Source: Candidatus Aminicenantes bacterium
Lineage (GTDB): Bacteria > Acidobacteriota > Aminicenantia > Aminicenantales > Aminicenantaceae
Reading direction: 5' to 3'
Assembly (NCBI GenBank): GCA_030603565.1
Contig: JAUVXM010000003.1
Coordinates: 1,359-65,358, forward strand
DNA: 64,000 nt
This document shows positions 1-15,404 of the stretch, in pieces. A program made the position numbers and the translations under genes. Position 1 is the stretch's first letter, and each line of letters opens with the position of its first letter. The notes beneath the pieces are model-generated. The model did not search any database. It saw nothing but the letters and a program-made list of their open reading frames with translations, and was not told the origin of the DNA.

Positions 1-1543
1 TTGACGGGAATTGCTCCAATCCCTGTTCCAGGATTTCCAGGGCTTCTTGTATACGTCCGGTCTCTGAATAGATCCCGGCTAAACGCTTGTAGGCCATATC
101 TATCTTATTATTTTCTGCTAAGATTTTTCGGAGAATGTTGATCGCAACTTCAGTTTTACCCGCTTTATACGTGTTCCAGGCATCCTGGGTTTTGTAATAT
201 ATGGGAAGAAGGACTTTAACATCATCCGCTTTGGTGAATTCTTTGTTGCTTGCCACATGAGAGCCGGAAAGATATCCCAAACTTTGCAGTTTTTCCAAGG
301 CCTTACGGTCAAATTTATATTTTGCTTTTGTATTTTCGGGGGCAGAAAAATCTTTGATAACCCGTTCCAGGGAATCTTTATATATTCTTATTTGGGCCGG
401 CTGAAATAAGTTGATCTTTTCATTAAAATCGGCTTTCAGATCATAAAGCTCATAAATGGGTGAATCAATGAATTTTTCATCTCCTCTAATAAATCCGACC
501 AAAGGCGCCCAGCCCCGGTTATAATAAGGATAAAGGGATTCAAAATAAACCGGTCTTGTTTTTAGTTTCTTGCCTTTCATGGCAGGCAGGAGTGATTCCC
601 CCTGCAGAAATGCAGGTTTTTTTAGTTTTAGGATCTCACAGATGGTTGGAAATATGTCTATATGCGAGACTGTTTGGGTATTAATTCGAGGTTTTAATTC
701 CGGAGCTGAGATAATCAGCGGAATCCATATGGTGGAGTTATAGGCAAAAAAAGCATGGGTTTCTTCCCCGTGATCACCCAAGGATTCACCGTGGTCTCCG
801 GTAAAAATAATTGCGGTATTTTCAATCAGGTTCTGACTCTCCAAGTATTTAAACAATATCCCCATTTCCTGATCGACATATGCTACTTCACCGTTATAAG
901 GAGTTTTGGCGAAGCGTGTTTTAAAGGGCTCCGGGGGATCATAAGGCACATGGGGATCAAAGCAGTGGATCCAGGCGAACCAGGGAGAGGTCTGCCCGCC
1001 TATCCAATCGACAGCATGGTTAATGACTTTTTCAGCTCTTCTTTCCGGGGAATAAAAATTGCCTTCATGCTGGCGCCTGTATTCATCATCATAGGTCGAA
1101 AAACCCTGAGCCAGGCCAAATCTTGAATCCAACGGATAAGCCCCGACAAAGGCTCCGGTAGCGTATCCCTGTTCCGCAAGATATTCCGCTAGAGTCACCA
1201 TTTCCTCCCGGATGATGAAGCTAAAGTTGTCATGCACCCCATGGTAAAGCGGTGTGGTCCCTAATAAAATATTGGCATGTGAAGGTAGAGTCGTAGAGTT
1301 GTGGGCAAAAGCTCGTTTAAATATGGTTCCCCGTGCAGCCAGGGCATCGATATGAGGAGTCTTTAAAAAATCGGGATTGTAGCAGCTCAACCGATCGGCC
1401 CTGAGCGTATCAATGGTAATAAGCAGCAGATTTGTCCCGTTCTTTTTTAAAGCTTTGCCGGGATAATCTGAAGCTACGTAAAAATTCCGGCTAAAAAGAA
1501 AAACAACAAACAAGCACAAGAAGATAGTGAGATTTTTTTTCAT
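1..1543 (-). CDS. Sulfatase-like hydrolase/transferase (alkaline-phosphatase superfamily) with C-terminal TPR repeats; membrane-anchored; C-terminus runs off the window
   Basis: Minus-strand translation from ATG 1543 (GGAG RBS upstream) gives MKKNLTIFLCLFVVFLF... (signal anchor), then LLLITIDTLRADRLSCYNPD, TLPSHANILLGTTP, IIFTGDHGESLGDHGE. The C-terminal part is TPR-like. Paralogue of the gene at 61446..63761. Confidence 0.75.
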   Translation of the reverse strand, partial: MKKNLTIFLCLFVVFLFSRNFYVASDYPGKALKKNGTNLLLITIDTLRADRLSCYNPDFLKTPHIDALAARGTIFKRAFAHNSTTLPSHANILLGTTPLYHGVHDNFSFIIREEMVTLAEYLAEQGYATGAFVGAYPLDSRFGLAQGFSTYDDEYRRQHEGNFYSPERRAEKVINHAVDWIGGQTSPWFAWIHCFDPHVPYDPPEPFKTRFAKTPYNGEVAYVDQEMGILFKYLESQNLIENTAIIFTGDHGESLGDHGEETHAFFAYNSTIWIPLIISAPELKPRINTQTVSHIDIFPTICEILKLKKPAFLQGESLLPAMKGKKLKTRPVYFESLYPYYNRGWAPLVGFIRGDEKFIDSPIYELYDLKADFNEKINLFQPAQIRIYKDSLERVIKDFSAPENTKAKYKFDRKALEKLQSLGYLSGSHVASNKEFTKADDVKVLLPIYYKTQDAWNTYKAGKTEVAINILRKILAENNKIDMAYKRLAGIYSETGRIQEALEILEQGLEQFPS

Positions 1544-1644
1544 CTCCGGCTCCTGTTTTTCCGAAGTTACAAATAAAAATCTCCCCCAACTTCTCCCTCC
1601 ATATAATTAGACGTGTTTAGCGCAGTAATTCTTCCCTTTTTTTA

Positions 1645-1786
1645 CCTGAACTATTCATAAAAGATGTCGATATGTATGATACATCTTTTCAAATCAACAT
1701 TTTACCCTGATTCCTATATAGATTCAATTGACCACTTCGTTTTCGATATAATCTATATTTATAATCGACATTTTTTGCTCTTAATA
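1645..1786. repeat. MITE-like repeat copy: left terminal inverted repeat (TIR) intact, right TIR degenerate
   Basis: cctgaactattcataaaagatgtcgatatgtatgatacatctttt ... ataatcgacatttttt. Shares TIR and internal blocks with copies at 43277, 45524 and 57199. Confidence 0.6.
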
Positions 1787-1945
1787 CGTTTTATACAGGC
1801 CAATTCTATGAAACTCTCTATTTCCTGCTGACTTCTTGTTGACAGTATATGTTTGCTCTGTGTATCATTGTAAATAAAGCAGCTCAATGGGCTGATGTTA
1901 ACCACATTTGAGGGTTTTTCAGATGAAATTCTTTGAGACGAACTT

Positions 1946-3140
1946 ATGGAAAAAGAAGCCAAAGCAAGGATAAGAATCAATGGCCTCCTTCAGCGTGCAG
2001 GGTGGCGGTTTTTTGATAATGAAAACGGCCCGGCAAATATTGCCCTGGAAATAAATGCCAAAATAAAGAAGAAAGTTCTTGACCAGTTTGGTGATGATTT
2101 TGAAAAAACCGTTGACGGATTTGTTGATTATCTCTTGCTTGACAGTAAAGGCTTCCCCTGTGCGGTACTTGAAGCAAAATCCGAAAAATTAGACCCATTG
2201 GTTGGCAAAGAACAAGCCCGCAAGTACGCTAAATCGTTAAATGTTCGCTTTATAATTCTTTCCAATGGAAACCTCCATTATTTTTGGGACTTAGAGCATG
2301 GTAATCCATCCATTATAACCGACTTTCCTTTTTTCTCCCACCGATTTCATACAGATCAAGGGCCGCGGCACACGGAGATATACCTTTCAATATAAAACCA
2401 AAGAGGGCAGCCGCATAGAGGAGTACAGGGACGAAAAGGGAACCTTCAAACTCTTCGATTTCTTTGCCACCTGCGAATATTTTGAGGAGAAATTCAATTA
2501 CGACGAAGTGCTGGAACTGCCACCAACTCAAGCGGGCACAGGTGATGGCAGCGGCATCAGCATTGATGAATTCGAGAGCATCAAACCGGACCCCTTATCG
2601 TCTTATATAGAGTCTCGAGTAGGCTATCATGGAATGAAGATCGACAGGAAATTTTACGATCAATTCGAGGAAACCGTCAAAAAAGATGATACGGTTCGCG
2701 AGCACTATGAGCGCGGTAATATCAAAGCAGCCGAGGAATACATCAGGGACAACCTCTTTGATAAACCTGAAGAATTCTTCAATTTGGAGAAACTGCGAAA
2801 GTCGGTCCAGCTCGATCGCCGGCTCTGGTTGTGGGAGATTATTGAAAAGGCATTTGGAGGCATTGACCGGTTTAAGTCCAAAGATGAACTGCTTGACGAG
2901 GAATTAGATAAATTTGTATCCATTCACAGGCCTGATGCTTCTCATATTTCCCGGATCAGGGATTTTTTCAAAGCTTATATTACGGACAGTGAAATCCGTG
3001 ACATTATAGAGAATAAACAATACAATCGCCTTGCCACCAATCCCAAGGTAACTATTGCCGATCTTAAGGACCTTGAAGAGTGGCGGAATATAATACCTGA
3101 ATATGTAAAGGACTATGTTTCTCTAAACACATTTTTGTAA
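1946..3140 (+). pseudogene. hsdR: Type I restriction enzyme R subunit (hsdR) remnant: HSDR_N nuclease domain joined by an internal deletion and frameshift to helicase motif VI plus C-terminal domain; motor core missing
   Basis: ORF 1946..2395 is an HSDR_N / PD-(D/E)xK domain (VDYLLLDSKGFPCAVLEAKSEK). The frame switches near 2320 to ...DFIQIKGRGTRR (SF2 motif VI, QxxGRxxR) with no DEAD-box or motifs I-V before it. The 2508..3140 ORF resembles an R-subunit C-terminal region. About 600 aa of ATPase core are absent. Confidence 0.7.
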
Positions 3141-3180
3141 AATATAGAAAATATCTGTATGTGATAAATGAGGATAACTG

Positions 3181-3755
3181 ATGGATAAAAAAGGTGTTAT
3201 GATTCCTGTTGAGAGAATTAAGCAGTTGATTGTGTTCATCCGCGGTCAGAAAGTTATGTTGGATCGGGATCTTGCAGAACTTTATGGCATAGAAACAAAG
3301 GTTTTGAAGCAAGCAGTACGGAGAAACATAAAACGTTTCCCTGACGATTTTATGTTTGAGTTAACGAAAGAAGAATTTGAAAATTGGAGGTCACAATTTG
3401 TGACCTCCAATAGGGACAAGATGGGTTTAAGATATAAACCTATGGCTTTCACCGAGCAAGGTGTAGCCATTCTTTCAAGCGTTTTGAGAAGTGAGAGGGC
3501 AATAGAAGTCAACATTGCCATAATGCTGCCTTCGTGCAACTCCGCGAAATGCTGGCTTCTAACGTGGAGCTTGCCAGTAAGCTGAAACAAATGGAAAAGA
3601 AATATGATGAACAGTTTAAGATCGTCTTTGAAGCTATTCGCCAACTTATGACGCCGCCAGAGAAGCCACGCAAGAAGATTGGGTTTGTGGTAAAGGAAAA
3701 GCAAGCTGCCTATGGCCGTCGAGGCATAAAACGCAAAAAGGCTGACCATGCTTGA
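3181..3755 (+). pseudogene. ORF6N-domain DNA-binding protein disrupted by a 1-nt frameshift near 3520
   Basis: N-terminal part [53 protein letters not shown] is the ORF6N signature. The reading ...AIM breaks, and the +1 frame continues (R)[35 protein letters not shown] (ORF 3534..3755). One missing base near gccataatgc-tgcc restores a single ORF. Confidence 0.65.
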
Positions 3756-6285
3756 TAACGGAACAAAAAAGCGGATAGATTCCGCGCGTGACATCCTTGT
3801 GGGTAAGGTTCCCGACCCAAAATCACAGGTAGAACAGATAACCATCGCCATGATCTACAAGTTCATGGACGACATGGACAATCAAACCGAAGAACTCGGA
3901 GGCAAGGCCACCTTTTTTGCGGGCGAATTCAAACAATACGCCTGGAGCCGCCTGCTGGACCGCAAATTCAGCGGTCACCAACGTCTTCTCCTTTATGCTG
4001 AGGGCATAGAGAAGATGAATATAAACGAAAACATCCCCCAGCTTTTCAGGGATATTTTTAAAGGAACGTTTCTTCCTTACAGGGACCCGGAAACACTAAA
4101 TCTCTTTCTGAAGGAGATAAACGGCTTTGCCTATGACCACAGCGAACGCCTGGGGGATGCTTTTGAGTATTTGCTTTCCGTTCTGAGCAGTCAGGGCGAT
4201 GCGGGGCAGTTTCGCACCCCACGTTATATCATTGATTTCATAGTTGAAATTGTAAATCCAGCCAAAGAGGACACTGTTCTTGATCCTGCATGCGGCACTG
4301 CCGGATTCCTGATCTCATCATACAAACACATCCTTCGCCAAAACACCAACCTGTCTACGTGCGGGCACGCACAGGCAGGAGACCACCCCGGCGACCTCCT
4401 GACCACCGATGATAAAGGCAGGCTTATGACCAATTTCTGCGGCTATGATATCTCCCCTGACATGGTGCGTCTGTCCCTGGTCAACATGTATCTGCACAGT
4501 TTTGCCAATCCATCAATTTATGAATACGATACACTTACCAGTGAAGACCGCTGGGACGAGCGTTATGATGTGATCATGGCCAATCCGCCATTTATGTCGC
4601 CCAAAGGGGGCATCCGGCCCCATTCCCGTTTCAGCATAAAGGCCAAACGGAGCGAAGTTCTTTTTGTGGACTACATCGCCGAACACCTCAATGTTCACGG
4701 CAGGGCCGGCGTCATTGTTCCTGAAGGGATCATCTTCCAGTCCCAGAATGCCTATAAGAATCTGCGCAGAATGTTGATTGATGAAGGCTACTTGTATGCG
4801 GTTATCTCCCTGCCTGCCGGGGTCTTTCAGCCATATTCGGGCGTAAAAACCAGCATCTTGATCATGGATAAAACCCTGGCAAAGAAGACCACTGAAATTC
4901 TTTTCGTAAAAATAGCAAACGACGGCTTTGACCTCGGAGCACAGCGTCGCCCCATTGAAAAGAACGACCTGCCCCAGGCCCTTGAGGTTGTCAAGGGCTG
5001 GAAGCAGGCAATCGGCGAAGGTAAAGGCTTTGAGTTTAACGAGGACGACAAGACAATCGCGCATACTGTCAGAAAAGAGAAAATTGCCGAGTCTGGCGAT
5101 TACAACCTCTCCGGGGACAGGTATAAAGAGGTTATGAGTTACGCCAATGTCAAGTGGCCGATGGTGGAGTTGGGGGATAAAAGCCTCTTTCAAATTGAAT
5201 CAGGCGGCACTCCAAGTTCCAACAAATCAGAATATTGGGATGGCGATATTAGATGGATAACATTGGTTGATTTACCCAAAGAAAATTTTATAACTTATAT
5301 TTCTGATACCAAAAGAAAGATTACAGAATTGGGATTAAGCAATTCATCTGCAAAGCTTCTGCCCAATAAAACTGTTTTGGTGTCGTCTCGTGCTACTATA
5401 GGCAGAATTGCTATTTCCCAAACAGAACTTGCGACAAATCAGGGATTCAAGAATGTAATCATTAAAGATTTCAGCAAGGTTAATGAAAAATATTTAGCGT
5501 GCATGCTTATGCGATTAGTTCCACAGATGGAGCAAATGGGAACTGGTGGCACATACAAAGAGATATCAAGAGCAAGCTTTTCAACTCTACGTATCCCCCT
5601 CCCACCCCTGGAAGTTCAGGAGAAGATTGTCGCGGAACTGGACGGTTATCAGGAAATCATTGATGGCGCAAAACAGATTGTCGAAAACTACAAACCCACA
5701 ATCAAAATCGACCCCGACTGGCCGTTGGTGGGGTTGGGGGAGGTGTGTGATATTAAGTCAGGCGGAACACCAAAAAAAGATGTTGATGACTATTGGGAAA
5801 ATGGTGAAATTCCTTGGCTTGGCTCTGGAGTCTGCAAAGATAATATTGTTTCTGAAAGTTCAGATTTTATAACTGAAACTGGTTTTAATAACTCCTCAGC
5901 TAAGAAATTGACCCCAAAAACTACATTAATCGCATTAGTTGGTGCTACGATAGGAAAAACAGCATTTCTTACTTTTGAAGCAACTACAAACCAAAATATT
6001 GCAGGCCTATATCCATTGAATACCAATGAATTACTTCCCGAGTTTCTATTTTATATTTCGCAAAGCCTATATTCAGAATTTATTAGTTTGGGGTCTGGAA
6101 AATTTAGAATGGCAAATCTAAGTTTCATAAGGGGATTGAAAATTCCCCTCCCACCCCTAAAAACTCAGGAAAAAATCGTTGCTGAAATCGAATCTGAGCG
6201 TGAGCTTGTGGAGGCGAATAAGAGGTTGATCGAGATTTTTGAGAAAAAGATAAAGGACAAAATCGGTGAAATCTGGGGGCAATAA
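3748..6285 (+). CDS. Fused type I RM methyltransferase-specificity protein (HsdM gamma-class N6-adenine methyltransferase domain plus HsdS with two target-recognition domains) in one 845-aa polypeptide
   Basis: [11 protein letters not shown] (motif X), [12 protein letters not shown] (motif I), IMANPPF (motif IV NPPF). From about aa 470 there are two target-recognition domains, each ending in the HsdS conserved repeat [17 protein letters not shown] / [17 protein letters not shown]. Start ATG overlaps the upstream ORF6N stop (ATGCTTGA). Confidence 0.85.
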
Positions 6286-6297
6286 TAAGGAGCATTC

Positions 6298-6660
6298 ATG
6301 AGTGAAAATGGAGTTATTCCAGGTGATCAGATTAAAAGCATTATCTTCCTGATACGCGGTCAAAAGGTCATGTTAAGCCCTCACCTGGCGGAGCTGTATA
6401 ATATTGAACCGCGCGTTCTGGTTCAGGCAGTAAAGCGAAATATCGAGAGATTCCCAGAGGATTTCATGTTTCAGTTGACAGACGATGAGTTTTTAAACTT
6501 GAAATCACAAATTGTGATTTCAAGTTGGGGTGGCTCTCGCAGGGCAAAACCCTATGCCTTCACTGAACAGGGTGTTGCGATGCTTCCATTGGGTTTTATA
6601 GTAAAGGAAAAGAAGGCTGCCTATGGCAAAAAAGAGGGCAGAGGAAAAGAAAAACCATGA
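6298..6660 (+). CDS. ORF6N-domain protein, shortened paralogue (central coiled-coil segment deleted)
   Basis: [57 protein letters not shown] then directly [16 protein letters not shown]. Same N- and C-terminal blocks as 3181..3755 but about 50 aa shorter. Overlaps the radC start. Confidence 0.55.
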
Positions 6661-7319
6661 AAACCATTAAAGACATGCCCGAACACAGCCGGCCCCGTGA
6701 GAAGCTGCGGGAAAAAGGCGCGTCTGCTCTGACCGACAAGGAACTGGTAGCCGCCATCCTTGGCCGTGGCATTGAAGGCGTGGATATTGTTACAATGTCC
6801 AGGAACGTCGCACGGCTGATACGAAAACATAAAGAGAACCTTTCTGTTGAGCATCTTACGTCTGTGCCGGGGATGGGGCTTGCCAAGGCCGCTCAGATAC
6901 TCTCGGCCTTTGAATTGGCAAGGAGATACCTGCTCAAAGAGACCGTAAAAATCACCAGCGCCAAGGATATCTTGCCCTTGGTTGCCGACATTGCCGATAA
7001 AAAACAAGAATATTTTGTGTGCATATCCTTAAACGGAGCCAACGAGCTCATTGAAAAGCGTATTGTCACCATCGGCCTTGTGAACAGCAGCCAGATTCAT
7101 CCGCGTGAAGTCTTTGCCGATGTCATCGCAGACCGTGCCGCTTCCGTCATCTTTGCCCATAACCATCCATCCGGCGACCCAAAACCAAGCGAAAGCGACG
7201 CAAAAACCCACAGGCAGCTTACAGAAGCCGGAAATATCCTCGGCCTTCGGATTCTCGATCACATAATAGTAACTAAAAAAGGATACTTCAGCTTCCAGGA
7301 AGCCGGATTGATTAGTTAA
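6657..7319 (+). CDS. radC: RadC-like JAB-domain protein
   Basis: N-terminal helix-hairpin-helix region ([10 protein letters not shown]..), JAB metal motif [27 protein letters not shown]. Confidence 0.85.
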
Positions 7320-7476
7320 CGGAAAAAACAAAAGAACAATACAAGGACAAACTCAAACTTCTGAAAAAGGGCCTCCTACAGGATTTGTTAACCAGCAAAA
7401 TGGAGTTTAGGATTTAAGAGACACTAAGCTTGCTTATAGGGGAAAAAAAGGTTAAAATTATACTAACATAACTGAT

Positions 7477-8115
7477 ATGGCATATCCAATTCCAACTCCA
7501 ATTTATCACCTTACTCACATCGATAACTTGACCTCTATTATTCAGTCAGGAGGCTGCTTATCTTTTAACCAGATGCAAAATCAGGGGATTGGTCACATTG
7601 ATATTGCATACGAAACCATTCAAGCCCGCCGTGTACAAACATCAGTTCCATACGGTCCTGGAGGATGTTTACACGACTACGTGCCCTTTTTTTTTGCTCC
7701 ACGTCCCCCAATGCTCTATGCGATCCACGGAGGGAATGTGGAAGGATATGAACAAGGGCAGATCCCTCTCATTTATCTGGTTACAACAGCTCAAACTGTC
7801 AGCAATAGCAGCAGTGAATGGGTTTTTACAGATGGACATGCAACTATGGCATTTTCCGGATTTTTTGACGATCTAAATGACCTTGATGAGATCGACTGGG
7901 AGGTTATGGAGTCGCGATACTGGAATGATACGCCAACTCTGCCCGACAGAAAGCGCAGACGACAAGCAGAGTTTTTAATTAAAGATTGTTGTCCCTGGGA
8001 ATTGTTTTCAGAAATCGGGGTCATAAACTCACGAATGGGATCAAGGGCGGAAAATATTCTCGAAAAAAACAGACATCAACCAATTGTTCAGATACACGGG
8101 AACTGGTATTATTAG
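7477..8115 (+). CDS. darT: DarT ssDNA thymidine ADP-ribosyltransferase toxin (DUF4433)
   Basis: IYHLTHIDNLTSIIQSGGCLS at the N-terminus and RKRRRQAEFLIKDCCPWELFSEIGV at the C-terminus (catalytic Glu in the AEFL motif). Size 212 aa. Immediately followed by a macrodomain gene. Confidence 0.8.
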   Translation: MAYPIPTPIYHLTHIDNLTSIIQSGGCLSFNQMQNQGIGHIDIAYETIQARRVQTSVPYGPGGCLHDYVPFFFAPRPPMLYAIHGGNVEGYEQGQIPLIYLVTTAQTVSNSSSEWVFTDGHATMAFSGFFDDLNDLDEIDWEVMESRYWNDTPTLPDRKRRRQAEFLIKDCCPWELFSEIGVINSRMGSRAENILEKNRHQPIVQIHGNWYY

Positions 8116-8127
8116 AAGGAGGGAATC

Positions 8128-9195
8128 ATGATTAAGCTTACGCAAGGCAACGTTATCGAAGCCGATGTGGAAGCCCTTGTCAATACCGTAAATTGTGTGG
8201 GTATTATGGGCAAGGGTATCGCTCTCCAGTTTAAGCAGGCATTCAGGGATAACTTCCAGGCATACACAAATGCTTGTAGAAAGGAAGAAGTCAAGCCGGG
8301 GCTCATGTTCATCTTCCCTACTCATAGAATGATCAATCCTAAATACATCATTAATTTCCCAACAAAGCGGCACTGGAAGGAAAAATCTAAGCTCGAATAC
8401 ATTGAGCAAGGACTAAACAGTTTGGTCAAGGAAGTCCGCCGGTTAAGAATCAAGGCTATTGCCATACCTCCTTTGGGTTGTGGCTACGGTGGGTTGAAAT
8501 GGCCAGTGGTCCGTAATCTAATCGAAACCTCATTCGATCAATTGCCCGATGTCCAGGTGCTCCTTTTCGAACCTGGAAGAACACCCGAGGCTGAATCAAT
8601 GCCTATAGATTTCACAAAACCATCATTAACGCGTGCCAGGGCTCTTCTCATTAAGCTCCTTGAGCAGTATGCCATACCAGGTTACCGGTTGAGCCTGCTG
8701 GAAATCCAGAAGCTTGCATATTTCCTTCAGGTTGCGGGTGAACCTCTTCGTTTGGAGTATGTCAAACAGAAGTATGGACCTTATGCTGAAAATCTTAATT
8801 TCGTGCTGCAACTATTGGAAGGGCATTACATTCGGGGATATGGGGACCGCAGTGTCAGGGCATCTATCCGCCTTCTCAATAGTGCCGGTGAGGAGGCCAG
8901 TAGGTTTTTGGCAGATAATCAAGAAGCCTTCCAACGCCTCGAGAGAGTGGGGCAACTAATTGAGGGTTTTGAAACGCCCTATGGTATGGAGCTCTTATCA
9001 TCCGTGCATTGGGTTGCAGTGGCCGATGACAAACCAGCTCAAACCGTGGATCAGGCCGTGAATCAGATTTTTGCCTGGAATGCCCACAAAAAAAAGACTT
9101 TCAAAGCCAGTCATGTCCACAAGGCATGGCAGCGTCTTGTTGAGCAAAGCTGGTTGCCAATTTTTTCATCGACCCTTTCTAATCCTTCGCATTGA
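8128..9195 (+). CDS. darG: DarG antitoxin: N-terminal TARG1-like macrodomain (ADP-ribosyl-DNA hydrolase) plus C-terminal DarT-binding domain
   Basis: EADVEALVNTVNCVGIMGKGIALQFKQAF macrodomain signature. 355 aa. RBS AGGAGGG 6 nt upstream; 12 nt downstream of darT. Confidence 0.75.
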   Translation: MIKLTQGNVIEADVEALVNTVNCVGIMGKGIALQFKQAFRDNFQAYTNACRKEEVKPGLMFIFPTHRMINPKYIINFPTKRHWKEKSKLEYIEQGLNSLVKEVRRLRIKAIAIPPLGCGYGGLKWPVVRNLIETSFDQLPDVQVLLFEPGRTPEAESMPIDFTKPSLTRARALLIKLLEQYAIPGYRLSLLEIQKLAYFLQVAGEPLRLEYVKQKYGPYAENLNFVLQLLEGHYIRGYGDRSVRASIRLLNSAGEEASRFLADNQEAFQRLERVGQLIEGFETPYGMELLSSVHWVAVADDKPAQTVDQAVNQIFAWNAHKKKTFKASHVHKAWQRLVEQSWLPIFSSTLSNPSH

Positions 9196-9225
9196 ATATT
9201 AAAATTCGAAGTCCTAGATCAGCGA

Positions 9226-10485
9226 TTAATGGGGGTGTGATTTAAGGTGCGGGAGGCAAGAGATGCCAAAGGGCATGACCAGGACTTTGGCATCTTTACC
9301 CTGAGCCTTAAGCGCTTCTGAGAGGGCTTTTTGGGGGGAGTCAAAACACCGGAAAAATAAATTCTTTGTTACCTCCTGCGGGAGGTCAGAGACTAAGTAA
9401 ATCCTATACTCAAGCTGTATCTTTGCCATCTGGGAGGCGATGTGGCGGCCCTGGATAAATTTATGTTTTAATTCATCCACCAGTTCATCAAGCGAAAGAT
9501 TCTCTGACAGAGCGCGGGACAAATTTTCCTCACCAATACCTTCTTTACAGCAGGCAACAGTCAGGATTATCCCGCCTTTTTTGACTGCAGGTAAAGCATT
9601 CTGCATAGCTTTGTGTGCCTGGTAGAGATTTATATCTTTAGGAAAACCTCCGGGAGAAGTAATGACAACATCAGCCGGTTCGTTAATCTGCAGCCTGAAT
9701 ATCCGGTCGATATATTCTACTCCTGCCCGGTGCGCAGCAGTCACATTACCAGCCACCACTTTTATTATCTCCTTTTGGGGATTTAATACTGCATTGACCA
9801 TAAAATCCACCCCAACCATAGCAGCTATCTCTTCCAGCTCTTCCCGCAGGGGATTGCCTTTAAGCACACCGGCTTTAGCACCTGGATGAAGAAACAGGCT
9901 GTGATTGGATTCAATGGTAGTCCGGCTGCATACACCGGGAGCCAAAGCTTTGGCACCCCCACTGTATCCGGCAAAATAATGGAATTCAAGATTTCCGGTT
10001 GCTATGACAAAATCAGCCTCAAGGACTTTTCTAAACACTTCTGCTTTCGTCCCCCTGCTTGTGACTCCGACTTGCTCACAATCCTCTAGATCATGTTCAA
10101 TAGACTTGATCCTCTCATATATCTTTTTGCCTACAAGGTCTTTTTTTTCTTCCTCAGTCTGTTTTCTGTGTACTCCCAGGCCGAATACTATTTTTACCTG
10201 ATTGTCATCTATGCCGGCAGTTTTTATCTCTTCTAAAATAGGAGGCAGTAAAACCTTCGAAGGAGCAGGCCGGGTAATATCGCTGACAAGAATCACAATC
10301 CGGTCATCAGGGGAAACAAGCTCTTTAAGCCGCTTGCTCTTAACAGGTTCAGCCAGGGCCCGCCTTACTTCAGCAGCCGGGTCGTCAACGCCGGCTTTAT
10401 CCTCAGGTTTTATCATCCCCAGGAAATTGGAGTTAGGAATATCAAGAGAGACTATTTTTTTTCCGTAATGTAAATCGATTTTCAT
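9226..10485 (-). CDS. LarA-family nickel-pincer-cofactor-dependent racemase/epimerase (lactate racemase-like, DUF2088)
   Basis: 419 aa; VILVSDITRP.., GLGVHR, HYFAGYSGGAKALAPG...ESNHS blocks typical of LarA homologues. Confidence 0.7.
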   Translation of the reverse strand: MKIDLHYGKKIVSLDIPNSNFLGMIKPEDKAGVDDPAAEVRRALAEPVKSKRLKELVSPDDRIVILVSDITRPAPSKVLLPPILEEIKTAGIDDNQVKIVFGLGVHRKQTEEEKKDLVGKKIYERIKSIEHDLEDCEQVGVTSRGTKAEVFRKVLEADFVIATGNLEFHYFAGYSGGAKALAPGVCSRTTIESNHSLFLHPGAKAGVLKGNPLREELEEIAAMVGVDFMVNAVLNPQKEIIKVVAGNVTAAHRAGVEYIDRIFRLQINEPADVVITSPGGFPKDINLYQAHKAMQNALPAVKKGGIILTVACCKEGIGEENLSRALSENLSLDELVDELKHKFIQGRHIASQMAKIQLEYRIYLVSDLPQEVTKNLFFRCFDSPQKALSEALKAQGKDAKVLVMPFGISCLPHLKSHPH

Positions 10486-10500
10486 CTATTTTTCCGACCC

Positions 10501-10535
10501 GTGAATAATTCAAGTCCGCCTGAACTATTCATAAA
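10501..10535. repeat. Solo TIR palindrome of the MITE family (right end and left end abutting)
   Basis: gtgaataattcaag tccg cctgaactattcataaaaa; lies between vapC and larA. Confidence 0.5.
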
Positions 10536-10924
10536 AATTGAAGTTTTAGCCTAATATTTTTATTGATCAGTTTAAAATGTGAATCTGCTGTAACTATAGT
10601 CAAATCATAATAAATAGCATGTGCAGCAATAATTAAATCTGTTAAAGGAATTGTATAACCTTTTTTTCTTAATCTGAATCCAATCTGGGATGTCTGTGCA
10701 AATATATTTTTATCAGTTTTTAGATGTTTAAAACCTTCAAAATTATTTTTGAGAAAGGAGAATTCTTTTTTATTAACTGCCCCAATAAGAAGCTCACTCA
10801 AAATAATACCATTATAATAGATTTTGTCTTCTTCAATTAAAGGCAGAAGAAAATCATTAACTGCTTTGTTCTTGCCTTTAAAAAAATCAATCCAAATTGT
10901 ACTGTCAATAATAAATTTACTCAT
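10529..10924 (-). CDS. vapC: PIN-domain toxin VapC
   Basis: 131 aa; IIDSTIWIDFF (N-terminal acidic residue), TIVTADSHF. Overlaps the upstream antitoxin by 8 nt. Confidence 0.75.
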   Translation of the reverse strand: MSKFIIDSTIWIDFFKGKNKAVNDFLLPLIEEDKIYYNGIILSELLIGAVNKKEFSFLKNNFEGFKHLKTDKNIFAQTSQIGFRLRKKGYTIPLTDLIIAAHAIYYDLTIVTADSHFKLINKNIRLKLQFL

Positions 10925-11132
10925 TCAATTCTTCTTCCCTTAATTTCAAAATATCTACTTTCAAATCCAATTTCCCACATGACTCTTTGATTTTTTCACG
11001 TTTTAATTTCCTGACAAAATCAGAAAGGGCTAGTTCAATAATCTTTGTCTTGTTTGCGATACCTGACAGCTTTAGTGATTCTGAGATTAAATCATCATTT
11101 ATATTAAGTGTAGTTCTCATCTGCACCTCCAA
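10917..11132 (-). CDS. vapB: VapB-type antitoxin
   Basis: 71 aa; MRTTLNINDDLISESLKL...IIELAL. Translationally coupled to vapC. Confidence 0.6.
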   Translation of the reverse strand: MEVQMRTTLNINDDLISESLKLSGIANKTKIIELALSDFVRKLKREKIKESCGKLDLKVDILKLREEELNE

Positions 11133-11232
11133 TGCATATAATAGATACAGATAACAAAACTGTCAAGCAATAAAACATACCTCTAAGCATTCGATGCGGT
11201 TATAATGGTGAAGGAAGAGTTTCTGCTTTACT

Positions 11233-12441
11233 TTGACATCTGAACTTTCATATGATATTACGGCTCATATGGAATCTATTTCTGCCAAGCGCCTCCCCTA
11301 TTCAAAAATCCGGGTGATGTTTGATGCTGCTAAAAAACTGGAAAAACAGGGCAGAGATATCATCCATCTAGAGATCGGCCGGCCTGACTTTAACACACCC
11401 CAGCACATCGTAGAAGCAGCTATCGAGGCTTTAAAGGCAGGAAAGCACCACTACTCGGCCAATGCCGGCATAATCGAACTGCGGGAAGCAGTAGCTGAAA
11501 AATACGCATCTGAATATAAACTGAATTTCTCTCCAGAGTCTGAGATCGTGATCACAAACGGAGTGGCAGAAGGAGTCTTCCTGGTAATAAATGCCCTGCT
11601 TGATCCGGGAGACCAGGTTCTAATCCCTAATCCACGCTGGGTCAATTACGAACCGGATGCCTACACAAACTTTGTTGAACCAATAAGTTATACTCTGTTT
11701 GAGGAAAAAAACTTCCAGCCTGATCCTGAGGAGGTGGAGGAAAAAATCACCCCCCGGACAAAAATGTTGATTTTAGCCAGCCCCTCCAATCCTACCGGGG
11801 GGGTCACAAGTAAAAAAATTCTTGAACAGATTGCTGCGTTGGCTGAAAAACATAACCTCATAGTAGTAAGCGACGAGATCTACGAAAAGATCATCTATCC
11901 TCCCGCTGAACACATCTGTGCTGCATCCTTAGAGGGTATGCAAGAACGAACAATAGTGCTGAACGGATTCTCTAAATTTTACTCGATGACAGGCTGGCGG
12001 TTGGGATATGCTGTGGGCCCGCAAAAATTAATTGACCCGCTATTACGTTACCACCAATACATGATAACCTCGACCAACACTTTTGCCCAATGGGGTGCGG
12101 TGACAGCGCTTAAAGGAGACCAGAATCCGTCTCTTATAATGCGGGACAAATTCCAAAAACGGCGGGATTTTATCCACACTGCGGTCAATGAAATTCCCGG
12201 GTTTTGCTCTACCCTGCCGGCCGGAGCTTTTTATCTCTTCCCCTCTGTCAAAGAAACGGGGCAAAAAGGAATTCAGGTCGCAGAGATGTTACTTGAAAAA
12301 GCCGGAGTAGCAACAGTCGCTGGTGAGTATTTCGGTATAAAAGGAGCCGGGCACATCCGGATATCCTATGCCAATTCTATGGAAAACCTTAAAACTGCGG
12401 TTAAGAAAATTAAAGCTGTTATGATAAGCAGTGAACAGTAA
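11233..12441 (+). CDS. Class I/II PLP-dependent aminotransferase (aspartate/aromatic aminotransferase family)
   Basis: GFSKFYSMTGWRLGY (PLP lysine), NPTGG, PNPRW. True start may be the internal ATG at about 11269. Confidence 0.85.
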   Translation: MTSELSYDITAHMESISAKRLPYSKIRVMFDAAKKLEKQGRDIIHLEIGRPDFNTPQHIVEAAIEALKAGKHHYSANAGIIELREAVAEKYASEYKLNFSPESEIVITNGVAEGVFLVINALLDPGDQVLIPNPRWVNYEPDAYTNFVEPISYTLFEEKNFQPDPEEVEEKITPRTKMLILASPSNPTGGVTSKKILEQIAALAEKHNLIVVSDEIYEKIIYPPAEHICAASLEGMQERTIVLNGFSKFYSMTGWRLGYAVGPQKLIDPLLRYHQYMITSTNTFAQWGAVTALKGDQNPSLIMRDKFQKRRDFIHTAVNEIPGFCSTLPAGAFYLFPSVKETGQKGIQVAEMLLEKAGVATVAGEYFGIKGAGHIRISYANSMENLKTAVKKIKAVMISSEQ

Positions 12442-12614
12442 ATGGTAAATAGTAAATGGTAAATAAAACCAGGAGAAGCAGGGCTATAAAAGCTAATCGT
12501 CATTCCGGTGAGTTTAAGCATCGTCATTCCGGCGGAAGCCGGAAACCAGGATAAATAGTAAATGGTAAATAGATAATGGTTACCCTAAAAAATTCATAAA
12601 TCGCGGAGGTATTG

Positions 12615-15404
12615 ATGCAAAAAAATAATACTATATCTTTAAGATTTTCAGCTCTGCTGCTTTTATTTATTTTATTGATAACATCTCCTCTTCCGGCCCA
12701 GAACCGAATCACAAGCCCCAAAGAACATTTCGGACACAACATCGGTGCTGACTATTTTCTGGCCACTTATACTCAGATGACAGAGTACTGGAAAAAACTC
12801 GCTTCAGAGTCCGACCGGATGATCCTTGAGGATATTGGCATAACTGAAGAAGGCCGAACCATAGTCATGGCTATTATTACTTCACCTGACAATCATAAAA
12901 ACCTTGACGGTTATCAAAAAATATCAAAAAAAATGGCTCTGGCAGAAGGGATCAAAGATAGCGAGGCCCGAACATTAGCCGCAGAAGGCAAAGCCGTAGT
13001 CTGGATCGATGGCGGCCTGCATGCTACCGAAGTCGTAGGTGCCCAGCAGGAAATCGAACTGGTCTATCAGATGGTCAGCCGCAATGACACCGAAACCCTG
13101 CGCATCCTTGACAATGTCATCCTTCTGGCAACAATCACCAATCCGGATGGCATGGACCTTGTCAGTAAATGGTATATGCGGGAATCCGACCCTGCTAAAC
13201 GCTCTTACAGGGGACTTCCCCGCTTGTATCAAAAATACATCGGGCACGACAATAACCGCGACTTCTATATGGTAACCCAAAAAGAATCTGAAGCTGTCTG
13301 CAGGGTCCTGTACAAGCAGTGGTTTCCCCAGATCATATACAACCACCATCAGAGCGGCCCCTCAGGGTGTGTGCTTTTTGCCCCGCCTTTCCGGGAACCA
13401 CACAGCTATAATTTCGACCCCCTCTTAATTCTGGGAGTCACGACCGTAGGTAATGCCATGCACAGCCGCTTTGCTGCAGAGGGGAAACCCGGTGCTGCTA
13501 TGCGGGATATCGCCGGTTACCAGACCTGGTGGAATGGGTGTCTGCGCTGTACTCCCTATTTCCACAACATGATCGGCATCCTTACGGAGATGATCGGCAA
13601 TCCCACCCCCATGGAAATCCCATTTATCCCTGACAGACATCTGCCAAGCGGAGATTACCCATTTCCTATCGCTCCCCAAAAATGGCACTTCCGCCAATCC
13701 ATAGAATACTCTATGACAGCAGACCGGGCCATTCTTGATCTGGCTGCCAAGTTACGGGAAAATTTCCTTTTCAATATTTACCGCATGGGGAAAAATTCAA
13801 TCGAATACGGAAGCAGCGATCACTGGACTATAGACCCAAGCCGCATCAAAGCGGTTGAGGAAGCCATAAACAAAAACAAGCCCACAATGACAGGCTCTGG
13901 CCGCTCCCAGGGATACCCTCCCGAATACTATCACAAGGTCCTCCACAACCCGGAAGCCCGTGACCCCAGGGGATATATCCTGCCATCTGACCAGGATGAT
14001 TTCCTGACTGCAGGAAAATTCGTAAACACTCTAATCAAGAATGGAATTACAGTATTACAAGCAACCGCTTCTTTTAAAACCGGAGACAAAACCTATCCGC
14101 AGGGCTCTTACATAATTAAAACCGCCCAGGCTTTTCGGCCCCACATCCTGGATATGTTGGAACCTCAATATTACCCGGATAAACCATCCTCATCCGGAGT
14201 AACTCCCAGACCTCCCTATGACAGCGCAGGCTACACCCTGGCCTTTCAGATGGGAGTAGAATTTGACCGTATCCTGGAAGGATTCGACGGCCCTTTCGAA
14301 AAAATCGAAGGGCTTGTCCAACCTTCTCCCGGCAGAATATACGGCATAGGAAAAGCCGGTTTTTTGCTGTCCCACAAAACAAATGATTCCTTTATTGCTG
14401 TAAACCGTCTGCTTAAAAGCGGAGAAAAAGTGTTCTGGCTTCAGAACCCCCTTAAAATAAGCAACAGGTTATTTTCCGCAGGCGCCATATATATCCCGGC
14501 CGCCGCCTCTACAGCAGCAAAGGTCCGTGAACTAGCTGCTGAACTCGGGTTGAATTTTTTTGCCATGGATAAAAAGCCAACCGGGACTGCTTTAGCTTTA
14601 AAGCCGACCAGGATCGGATTGTGGGACCGCTACGGTGGCTCTATGTCCTCCGGCTGGGTACGCTGGATCCTGGAAAAATTCGACTTCAACTTCGAAGTAG
14701 TCTTCCCTCAGACACTCGATGCGGGTAACCTTAAAGAGCAATTCGATGTCCTCATCTTTGTGGGCGGCGCCATTCCCTCAAAAGAAGGTTCTTCCTCCCA
14801 GCGCTCCTGGAGACGTTCCAGCCCTGACCCTGAAACCATACCGGCTGAATTCAGGCAAATGCTGGGTTCTGTCACCGCAGAAAAGACAATCCCCCAACTG
14901 CGCAAATTCCTCAGGCAAGGAGGCACTGTCCTTACTCTCGGAAGTTCCAACAATCTCGCATCCCACCTCGAACTCCCGCTCGTTGACCCTCTTACCGAAA
15001 AAAATGCTGATGGAAAATCAACTCCCCTGCCGTCAGATAAATTTCTCATTCCCGGTTCAATACTTCAGGTACGAGTTAATAATAACCATCCGCTGGCCTA
15101 CGGCATGCCGGAAAAGGCAGATGTCTATTTTAACCGAAGCCCTGTATTTGACCTGCTGCCGGAAGCATCATTTGAAAAAATCAGCCCGGTTGCTTGGTTT
15201 GATACCGACACCCCCCTGCGCAGCGGTTTAGGCAGAGGGCAGCACTATCTCAAAGGCACTACTGCAGTCATCGCAGCTGAAGTAGGAAAAGGCAAACTTT
15301 TTTTACTCGGCCCGGAAATCACCTTCCGCGCCCAACCGCACGGAAATTTTAAGTTTCTGTTTAATGGAATATATTACGGAGGAGCGAAATTAACAGAATT
15401 TTAA
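12615..15404 (+). CDS. Secreted M14-family zinc carboxypeptidase with large C-terminal extension
   Basis: Signal peptide; HATEVVG, TNPDGMD, NHHQSG motifs. GGAGG RBS upstream of ATG 12615. Confidence 0.8.
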   Translation: MQKNNTISLRFSALLLLFILLITSPLPAQNRITSPKEHFGHNIGADYFLATYTQMTEYWKKLASESDRMILEDIGITEEGRTIVMAIITSPDNHKNLDGYQKISKKMALAEGIKDSEARTLAAEGKAVVWIDGGLHATEVVGAQQEIELVYQMVSRNDTETLRILDNVILLATITNPDGMDLVSKWYMRESDPAKRSYRGLPRLYQKYIGHDNNRDFYMVTQKESEAVCRVLYKQWFPQIIYNHHQSGPSGCVLFAPPFREPHSYNFDPLLILGVTTVGNAMHSRFAAEGKPGAAMRDIAGYQTWWNGCLRCTPYFHNMIGILTEMIGNPTPMEIPFIPDRHLPSGDYPFPIAPQKWHFRQSIEYSMTADRAILDLAAKLRENFLFNIYRMGKNSIEYGSSDHWTIDPSRIKAVEEAINKNKPTMTGSGRSQGYPPEYYHKVLHNPEARDPRGYILPSDQDDFLTAGKFVNTLIKNGITVLQATASFKTGDKTYPQGSYIIKTAQAFRPHILDMLEPQYYPDKPSSSGVTPRPPYDSAGYTLAFQMGVEFDRILEGFDGPFEKIEGLVQPSPGRIYGIGKAGFLLSHKTNDSFIAVNRLLKSGEKVFWLQNPLKISNRLFSAGAIYIPAAASTAAKVRELAAELGLNFFAMDKKPTGTALALKPTRIGLWDRYGGSMSSGWVRWILEKFDFNFEVVFPQTLDAGNLKEQFDVLIFVGGAIPSKEGSSSQRSWRRSSPDPETIPAEFRQMLGSVTAEKTIPQLRKFLRQGGTVLTLGSSNNLASHLELPLVDPLTEKNADGKSTPLPSDKFLIPGSILQVRVNNNHPLAYGMPEKADVYFNRSPVFDLLPEASFEKISPVAWFDTDTPLRSGLGRGQHYLKGTTAVIAAEVGKGKLFLLGPEITFRAQPHGNFKFLFNGIYYGGAKLTEF

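Follow-up and report, generated by a model that had tools for sequence, protein, structure and literature searches.

The stretch of DNA analyzed here, in the following called the window, comprises 64,000 nucleotides (nt) of contig JAUVXM010000003.1 of a Candidatus Aminicenantes bacterium. On its plus strand it carries two adjacent open reading frames (ORFs) at positions 7477-9195, which an earlier note made from the sequence alone had described as a complete DarT/DarG toxin-antitoxin module. Both ORFs lie where that note placed them. The analysis of their families, predicted fold, active-site residues and genomic context indicates that the pair is very probably an intact, functional-looking toxin-antitoxin module of the DarTG2 type, to which activity and a role in phage defense are assigned by homology. 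The features of the pair are the following:

7477..8115, plus strand: darT, predicted DNA ADP-ribosyltransferase toxin of the DarT2 subfamily, 212 amino acids (aa), ATG start (PF14487, NF048013, PADLOC, 7omv).
8116..8127, plus strand: spacer of 12 nt between darT and darG, AAGGAGGGAATC, read directly from the sequence.
8128..9195, plus strand: darG, predicted DNA ADP-ribosyl glycohydrolase antitoxin, 355 aa, ATG start (NF048014, PADLOC).
8128..8592, plus strand: TARG1-like macrodomain of DarG, residues 1-155 (N22, K29, K80, H82, W83, G117-G122 loop; 5m31, 5m3i).
8686..9135, plus strand: predicted C-terminal DarT-binding domain of DarG, residues 187-336 (7yk3_B positions 30-184 of 189, E=6.6e-20).

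Profile searches, which the earlier note had proposed as a check, were concordant among Pfam, PADLOC and NCBIfam, and both proteins are full length with respect to their family models. DarT matches Pfam PF14487 over the whole profile (1-201 of 201; 228.5 bits, E=8.6e-68, cut-off 22.5 bits) and exceeds the cut-off of the NCBIfam equivalog NF048013 (toxin_DarT, 150 bits) with 263.9 bits (9.3e-79), its residues 9-212 covering positions 1-204 of 204. DarG similarly passes the equivalog NF048014 (antitoxin_DarG, cut-off 250 bits) with 456.9 bits (4.3e-137), residues 2-337 corresponding to positions 1-338 of 338, and about 18 variable residues extend past the end of the model at the C-terminus. PADLOC detected DarT at 6e-73 and DarG at 2e-132, and the Macro domain of Pfam was found in DarG at E=1.7e-24. 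The gene darT is located directly upstream of the macrodomain gene darG on the same strand, which is the arrangement that defines a DarTG2 operon. An exact-sequence look-up showed that the window DarT is not on record. As one more DarTG2 of a well-characterised type, already caught by standard curated models, the pair is an ordinary one.

Among solved structures, DarT of Thermus sp. 2.9 (7omv) was matched with 47% identity over 204 aligned positions (E=6.3e-55), and the DarT chain of M. tuberculosis (7yk3_A) was matched as well. The AlphaFold (AF2) model of the window DarT, which was compared with the PDB by Foldseek, has a mean predicted local distance difference test score (pLDDT) of 93.0 and a predicted template modeling score (pTM) of 0.91. 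Its best match is Thermus DarT 7omy (E=6e-28, template modeling score (TM) 0.93, root mean square deviation 1.6 Å), followed by M. tuberculosis DarT 7yk3 (TM 0.86) and the fused DarTG of Thermosipho (TM 0.80), whereas the guanine-specific DarT1 8baq is matched poorly (TM 0.55, 15% identity). The two sequence blocks singled out in the earlier note are found at DarT residues 9-18 (IYHLTHIDNL) and 160-167 (RRRQAEFL). The same note had named the lack of either the ADP-ribosyltransferase (ART) fold or the catalytic glutamate from a predicted structure as a reason to abandon the assignment; both are present, the fold with a TM of 0.93 and the glutamate as E165.

The active site of Thermus DarT has been described residue by residue. 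H13, T15 and N19 bind NAD, R51 polarizes NAD+ and takes the proton from N3 of thymidine, the active site further includes H65, Y71 and M78, and E160 is the catalytic glutamate (PMC9967889, PMC5179494). Thymidine-positioning or oxocarbenium-stabilizing roles were ascribed to H65, M78 and H119, the last of which locks thymidine in place (PMC9967889). These residues were mapped to the window via the alignment with 7omv, in which the chain numbering equals the native numbering plus one. The equivalents in the window DarT are H11, T13, N17, R52, H66, F72, M79, H121 and E165, where R52 aligns with R51 and E165 with the residue mutated in 7omv (E160A). The set for thymidine positioning and oxocarbenium stabilization (H121, M79, H66) is thus kept in full and the sole change is that of Y71 to F72. 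Conservation was assessed with 1,480 DarT homologues found at E<=1e-10, from which an alignment of 63 sequences (the window DarT and 62 homologues) was built; residues were tallied over 121 sequences, namely the window DarT and its 120 best homologues. The catalytic glutamate is present in 120 and the arginine in 119 of these 121.

The substituted tyrosine belongs to the class-defining H-Y-E triad and is stacked on the nicotinamide (PMC11543638), and it contributes to the polarization of NAD+ (PMC9967889). In the window DarT, H11 and E165 of the triad are kept and F72 retains the aromatic ring while the hydroxyl is lost. At this position the 121 sequences show tyrosine 91 times, phenylalanine 25 times, serine twice and cysteine and histidine once each. 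The sequences bearing phenylalanine are 52-99% identical to the window DarT, and tyrosine also occurs within the close clade (in the homologue P0007, 82%). A catalytic defect unique to the window was therefore considered and rejected, as phenylalanine recurs in 25 of 121 sequences and is mixed with tyrosine inside the clade. Because of this frequency and alternation, the sequences suggest that phenylalanine at the triad position is a tolerated, recurrent variant and not a lesion.

The N-terminal part of DarG corresponds to solved DarG macrodomains, with 50% identity to that of Thermus aquaticus (5m31, E=1.2e-52) and 51% to that of M. tuberculosis (5m3i, E=6.5e-49); the match to human TARG1/OARD1 is weak (E~1e-4). 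This bears out the TARG1-like macrodomain that had been proposed from the sequence LVNTVNCVGIMGKGIALQFK, which occupies DarG residues 17-36. Mutation of N22, K29, G119 and above all K80 impairs or abolishes hydrolysis by DarG (PMC5179494), and all four residues are found at identical numbering in the window DarG, together with H82, W83 and the G117-G122 loop. Hence, the catalytic lysine that the earlier note had advised looking for is K80, and the residues do not have the composition unfit for de-ADP-ribosylation that it had considered as an argument against an antitoxin. The C-terminal extension noted at the same time is real and can be given a putative function: given the match of residues 187-336 to DarG in the M. 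tuberculosis DarT-DarG complex (7yk3_B), the extension represents the predicted DarT-binding domain. According to PMC11481870, which cites Deep et al. 2023, this domain occludes the DarT active site by mimicking single-stranded DNA (ssDNA).

The two DarTG subfamilies are separated by their antitoxins: DarTG1 has a NADAR protein that reverses guanine ADP-ribosylation and DarTG2 a macrodomain protein that reverses thymidine ADP-ribosylation (PMC11543638). No NADAR domain was matched in the window DarG by Pfam, PADLOC or NCBIfam. The two-domain macrodomain DarG, the thymidine-handling arginine and histidine of DarT and its DarT2-like fold therefore place the module, as judged from these features, in the thymidine-specific DarTG2 subfamily, an assignment that the earlier note had not made.

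An in-frame TAA precedes the darT ATG by 9 nt, so that 7477 is the earliest start possible. The darT stop codon is TAG and is directly followed by the spacer, which contains a strong Shine-Dalgarno sequence (AAGGAGG, 8116-8122) 5 nt ahead of the darG ATG; the 12-nt gap with its strong ribosome-binding site had been recognized in the earlier note. In contrast, darT lacks an obvious ribosome-binding site. All antisense ORFs over the darTG region are at most 122 aa long. The one of 122 aa (8041-8409, minus strand) crosses the darT/darG junction, and a similar one of 147 aa exists in two of the homologous contigs used for comparison (L006 and L008; these contigs, L001-L008, L020, L021 and L035-L038, are cited by number where needed). 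It is probably a by-product of coding on the sense strand.

Both genes show the signature of sequence constraint. The ratio of nonsynonymous to synonymous substitution rates (dN/dS), computed between the window and each of five homologous pairs (L004-L008, from metagenome-assembled genomes (MAGs) of Desulfobacterales or "Deltaproteobacteria", 77-87% amino-acid identity), amounts to 0.16-0.26 in darT and 0.10-0.15 in darG, indicating that both are under purifying selection. An intact pair is furthermore found in five metagenome contigs that are nearly identical (L001, L035-L038). Between the window and L035, three residues of DarT and six of DarG are different; compared with L001, DarT has one difference and DarG none. 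In L001 the gene caller had started DarT at M33 (180 aa), a start that would cut off the NAD-binding N-terminus.

By analogy with characterised homologues, the pair would be enzymatically active, specific for thymidine, toxic and directed against phages in its host. In this model, darT and darG would be co-transcribed with the toxin first, and the weak translation signal of darT versus the strong one of darG would favor an excess of antitoxin. DarT, an ARTD/PARP-like ADP-ribosyltransferase, would use NAD+ to attach ADP-ribose to the thymidine base of ssDNA within a short four-base motif (TNTC in Thermus), and this modification would block replication. The DarG macrodomain, with K80 as catalytic residue, would hydrolyze the thymidine-ADP-ribose bond, and the C-terminal domain would bind DarT and occlude its DNA-binding site. 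Phage infection would tip the balance, whereupon free DarT would modify phage and host ssDNA and the infection would be aborted. Systems of both DarTG subfamilies have been shown to confer phage protection on E. coli when removed from their native context (PMC11543638, PMC11481870), and an anti-phage abortive infection function, as stated in the earlier note, can be proposed for the window darTG by this analogy.

Upstream of darTG, the window contains the descendant of a type I restriction-modification (RM) operon and further genes associated with it:

1946..3140, plus strand: hsdR deletion remnant, with ORF 1946-2395 (N-terminal nuclease region) and ORF 2508-3140 (C-terminal region); HSDR_N, REase_I.
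3144-3755: extra copy of an ORF6N-domain gene, ORFs 3181-3585 and 3534-3755; PADLOC PDC-S05 1.6e-50.
3748..6285, plus strand: intact, fused hsdM-hsdS, 845 aa; N6_Mtase 2.5e-54, two Methylase_S stretches, PADLOC MTase_I and Specificity_I.
6298..6660, plus strand: ORF6N-domain gene, 120 aa; Pfam ORF6N 2.8e-32, PADLOC candidate system PDC-S05 4e-37.
6657..7319, plus strand: radC-like JAB-domain gene, 220 aa; Pfam RadC 1.7e-39 and UPF0758_N, NCBIfam RadC 199 bits (cut-off 180 bits).
7322..7417, plus strand: remnant of an hsdS 3' end (96 nt, 32 codons), encoding EKTKEQYKDKLKLLKKGLLQDLLTSKMEFRI and the stop; aligns with the C-terminus of HsdS in L008.
7430..7458, plus strand: candidate darTG promoter, TTGCTT-17 nt-TAAAAT, seen by eye and based on conservation.

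The radC-like gene precedes darT on the same strand, and its start and the ORF6N stop share 4 nt. The position of the radC-like JAB gene that accompanies RM-DarTG varies, being just 5' of darT in the window and 5' of hsdM in L008 (2692-3429), which hints at a recurrent association of radC with the RM-DarTG cluster.

Comparison with the sister strains revealed how the RM genes of the window have changed. Contigs L035-L038 (~93.5% nucleotide identity) exhibit the order sulfatase-like gene (minus strand), hsdR (838 aa), hsdM/S fusion (815 aa), ORF6N, radC, darT and darG, followed 3' of darG by larA (minus strand), vapC, vapB and an aminotransferase gene, at the same chromosomal site as in the window. 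Intact hsdR encodes 838 aa in L035, L036 and L038 and 836 aa in L002, the L002 homologue having ResIII/DEAD/SWI2_SNF2 matches at residues 188-344. The window hsdR lacks 1,318 nt, corresponding to L002 773-2090 and L035 4209-5526, so that the helicase core is missing. The earlier note's claim of a decayed RM locus is therefore borne out, with the refinement that the decay is specific to this strain. The hsdM part of the fusion is 85-87% identical to that of the sister strains. The target-recognition segments (~5172-5595 and ~5738-6140) cannot be aligned with theirs, which suggests that the recognition domains were swapped. The extra ORF6N copy appears frameshifted and is not found in the sister strains. 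The type I RM genes (hsdR remnant and intact hsdMS), two PDC-S05 ORF6N genes and DarTG are gathered within ~7.3 kb. The designation "defense island" is fair but modest, as it refers to one RM-DarTG cluster and a separately inserted vapBC pair flanked by conserved housekeeping genes.

The region immediately upstream of darT carries the trace of the ancestral arrangement. L008 carries the genes in the order radC-hsdM-hsdS-darT-darG-hsdR-ygjP, and the intact HsdS ends with EEQYRDKLKLQKKGLMHDLLTGKVRVRL and its stop directly ahead of darT. The tail of hsdS precedes darT in every clade member examined (including L004-L007), also in those that have lost the remainder of hsdS. It is followed by a block, AAGCTTGCxTAxAG...AAGGTTAAAATT, which is conserved 5' of darT in the window, L001 and L004-L008, though the sequences farther upstream differ. 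These similarities indicate that the window pair descends from a darTG that was flanked by hsdS and hsdR in a type I RM operon, whose hsdR helicase core was later lost in this strain. An association of DarTG with type I RM operons has been published (PMC5179494). The pair is accordingly embedded in the descendant of the RM operon and not merely adjacent to it, as the earlier note had it. Part of the conserved block is the TTGCTT-17-TAAAAT element, which conservation marks as a candidate promoter of darTG. A search for operator-like inverted repeats 5' of darT yielded just a weak, unconvincing 11-nt pair over the start codon, and an Rfam scan of positions 1-14000 returned nothing.

Several relatives exhibit further losses at the locus. 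In L001 the segment equivalent to window 6467-7415, with the 3' part of ORF6N, with radC and with the hsdS remnant, has given way to an insertion sequence (IS) that has a DDE_Tnp_1_4 transposase (~595-2245), and darTG is intact. The terminal inverted repeats of the IS lie around GCTTATCCGATTATTTGGG, and it ends just 5' of the conserved darT block, which is kept directly after the IS. In L002 and L003, 428 nt (window 7360-7787) have been deleted, comprising the darT upstream block and codons 1-104, and darG is kept; the deletion lies between two copies of CTCAAACT (window 7352 and 7790; L002 6290-6360). DarG is likewise kept beside a truncated DarT in L020 and L021. Such a pattern, with the antitoxin kept and the toxin lost, is expected if the toxin is active and costly. 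The loss of hsdR (window) and that of darT (L002/L003) never occur together in the contigs examined. The darG of L002/L003 has a frame change near codon 327, which could be an assembly error (~7x coverage). L002 and L003 have the same sequence, with matching blocks to the window, and come from MAGs of one study labeled Candidatus Aminicenantes and Desulfobacteraceae; consequently, at least one bin assignment is wrong. In L006, a TOTE conflict-system primase-helicase (4649-7093; AEP-TOTE 5e-101) is located directly 5' of darTG, so that the module occurs in different defense neighborhoods across genomes.

Comparison with known systems places the window pair closest to the DarTG of Thermus (T. 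aquaticus and Thermus sp. 2.9; DarT 7omv-7on0, DarG macrodomain 5m31/5m3e), which has the same order darT-darG and a DarT of ~210 aa versus 212 aa in the window. Besides the sequence identities and the fold similarity given above, the two share the catalytic arginine, histidine and glutamate of DarT and K80 of DarG, and in both cases the pair is located within a type I RM operon. They differ in that Y71 of Thermus is F72 in the window DarT, which also carries loop insertions of 3, 3 and 1 residues, that the Thermus host is a thermophile whereas the window host is an uncultured bacterium of sediment type that probably resembles sulfate reducers, and that the RM partner in the window is without its hsdR core. 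The DarTG of M. tuberculosis (Rv0059/Rv0060; 7yk3, 5m3i) also has a two-domain DarG, with the macrodomain and C-terminal matches already described, but its DarT is only ~28% identical and has serine and asparagine in place of H65 and H119, both of which are kept as histidine in the window; the module is not known to be part of an RM operon. More distant is DarTG1 (DarT1-NADAR of E. coli C7 and Geobacter lovleyi; 8baq), which likewise combines an ARTD-type DNA ADP-ribosyltransferase with an enzymatic antitoxin and acts against phages, though its antitoxin is a single-domain NADAR protein and its target guanine. Human TARG1/OARD1 shares the fold family and the position of the catalytic lysine (K80 of the window DarG equals K84 of TARG1), but it is a stand-alone eukaryotic protein without a DarT-binding C-terminal domain and its sequence similarity to DarG is weak.

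Three other explanations of the pair were weighed against an active thymidine-specific defense module. A substrate other than ssDNA thymidine, for example guanosine as in DarT1, RNA or protein, is conceivable, given that DarT relatives with guanine specificity exist (PMC11543638) and that cytidine is mentioned in PMC12945103. This is nonetheless extremely unlikely, because the antitoxin is a macrodomain DarG and not a NADAR protein, the thymidine-handling R51 and H119 are kept as R52 and H121, and the predicted fold agrees with DarT2 structures (TM 0.86-0.93) far better than with DarT1 (0.55); in addition, DarT passes the NCBIfam equivalog of thymidine-type DarT. An attenuated or effectively inactive DarT would result if F72 were damaging, with the pair becoming a relic in which DarG is kept as an orphan antitoxin or an anti-DarT immunity gene. 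The roles of Y71 in nicotinamide stacking, NAD+ polarization and the class-defining motif speak for this idea, as do the serine, cysteine or histidine in the few homologues that depart from both aromatic residues and the relatives (L002/L003, L020, L021) that repeatedly keep DarG beside a truncated DarT. On the other hand, phenylalanine retains the ring needed for stacking, which in DarT1 is carried out by phenylalanines (PMC11543638), all other catalytic residues are intact, and the deletion of darT in sister lineages suggests a toxin worth removing. Since the phenylalanine-bearing clade alternates with tyrosine at this position and its darT is under purifying selection throughout, attenuation through F72 is considered highly improbable.

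An assignment as a genuine DarTG2 whose main role is not defense carries more weight, though it is still judged unlikely. The pair might then provide the type I RM island with an addiction or stabilization cassette, or regulate growth or replication; in M. tuberculosis, ssDNA ADP-ribosylation controlled by DarTG is reported to coordinate growth and transcription (PMC12170906). The joint transmission of hsdS tail, promoter-like block and darTG within the clade fits such a role, and so does the location of the cluster at one fixed chromosomal site, from the sulfatase-like gene to larA, in all sister strains, with no recognizable mobile element. A search of plasmids for close mobile copies returned DarG matches only, at <=65% identity, the phage collection being left unsearched. 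However, the island is unstable in practice, as hsdR, radC and darT have each been lost in some lineage, both DarTG subfamilies protect E. coli against phages in the studies cited above, and defense does not exclude addiction or regulation. A functional-looking DarTG2 module with a putative defense function is preferred, and some points weigh against it. The exchange of Y71 for F72 could lower the catalytic efficiency. In a scan of 6200-9400 no consensus sigma-70 site was found 5' of darT, the candidate promoter being below threshold, and a terminator scan of the same region found none after radC or darG, so that the transcription unit is proposed from conservation. The locus is undergoing decay, as seen in the hsdR deletion and the frameshifted ORF6N copy, and a recent, silent regulatory inactivation of darTG is possible. 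Lastly, the host is uncultured, and both activity and defense are attributed by homology.

It was also considered whether, in this clade, DarTG might work together with the type I RM system as a single functional unit. The idea draws on the co-inheritance of hsdS tail, promoter-like block and darTG, on the ancestral order hsdM-hsdS-darT-darG-hsdR and on the separate occurrence of the losses, but it is quite improbable on present evidence. If true, methylation or restriction might engage in crosstalk with DNA ADP-ribosylation, a question raised in 2016, DarTG might be a backup or addiction partner of the restriction enzyme, and the H-F-E variant of the clade might tune toxin strength for this role. 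The contigs form a natural series, from the full RM-DarTG operon to the loss of hsdR, the loss of darT and the replacement of radC by an IS, which might serve to explore a mutual dependence of DarTG and type I RM, the idea of such crosstalk being long-standing but unproven. Similarly, a sizeable DarT2 clade with H-F-E under purifying selection may give a hint on the share of the tyrosine hydroxyl in catalysis or, alternatively, yield DarT2 variants of naturally reduced activity for use in DNA-editing tools. Beyond correct annotation the finding matters little, and its mild interest resides in this clade and in the decay series.

Elsewhere in the window, a few other loci were noted. A sulfatase pseudogene at 44-1519 was considered and rejected, as the sequence is an intact minus-strand ORF that runs off the start of the window. 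A vapBC pair (PIN toxin and VapB antitoxin; 10529-11132, minus strand) is located in a patch of low guanine-plus-cytosine content (0.29-0.34), 1.3 kb 3' of darTG. It is absent from L002 and present in L035-L037, which marks it as a separate small insertion next to larA. Finally, an ORF of 194 aa at 19730-20314 matches the C-terminal portions of PADLOC models for ATPases associated with defense (mad3 2e-22, AriA 6e-13 and GajA) and may be a fragment of an ATPase defense gene.

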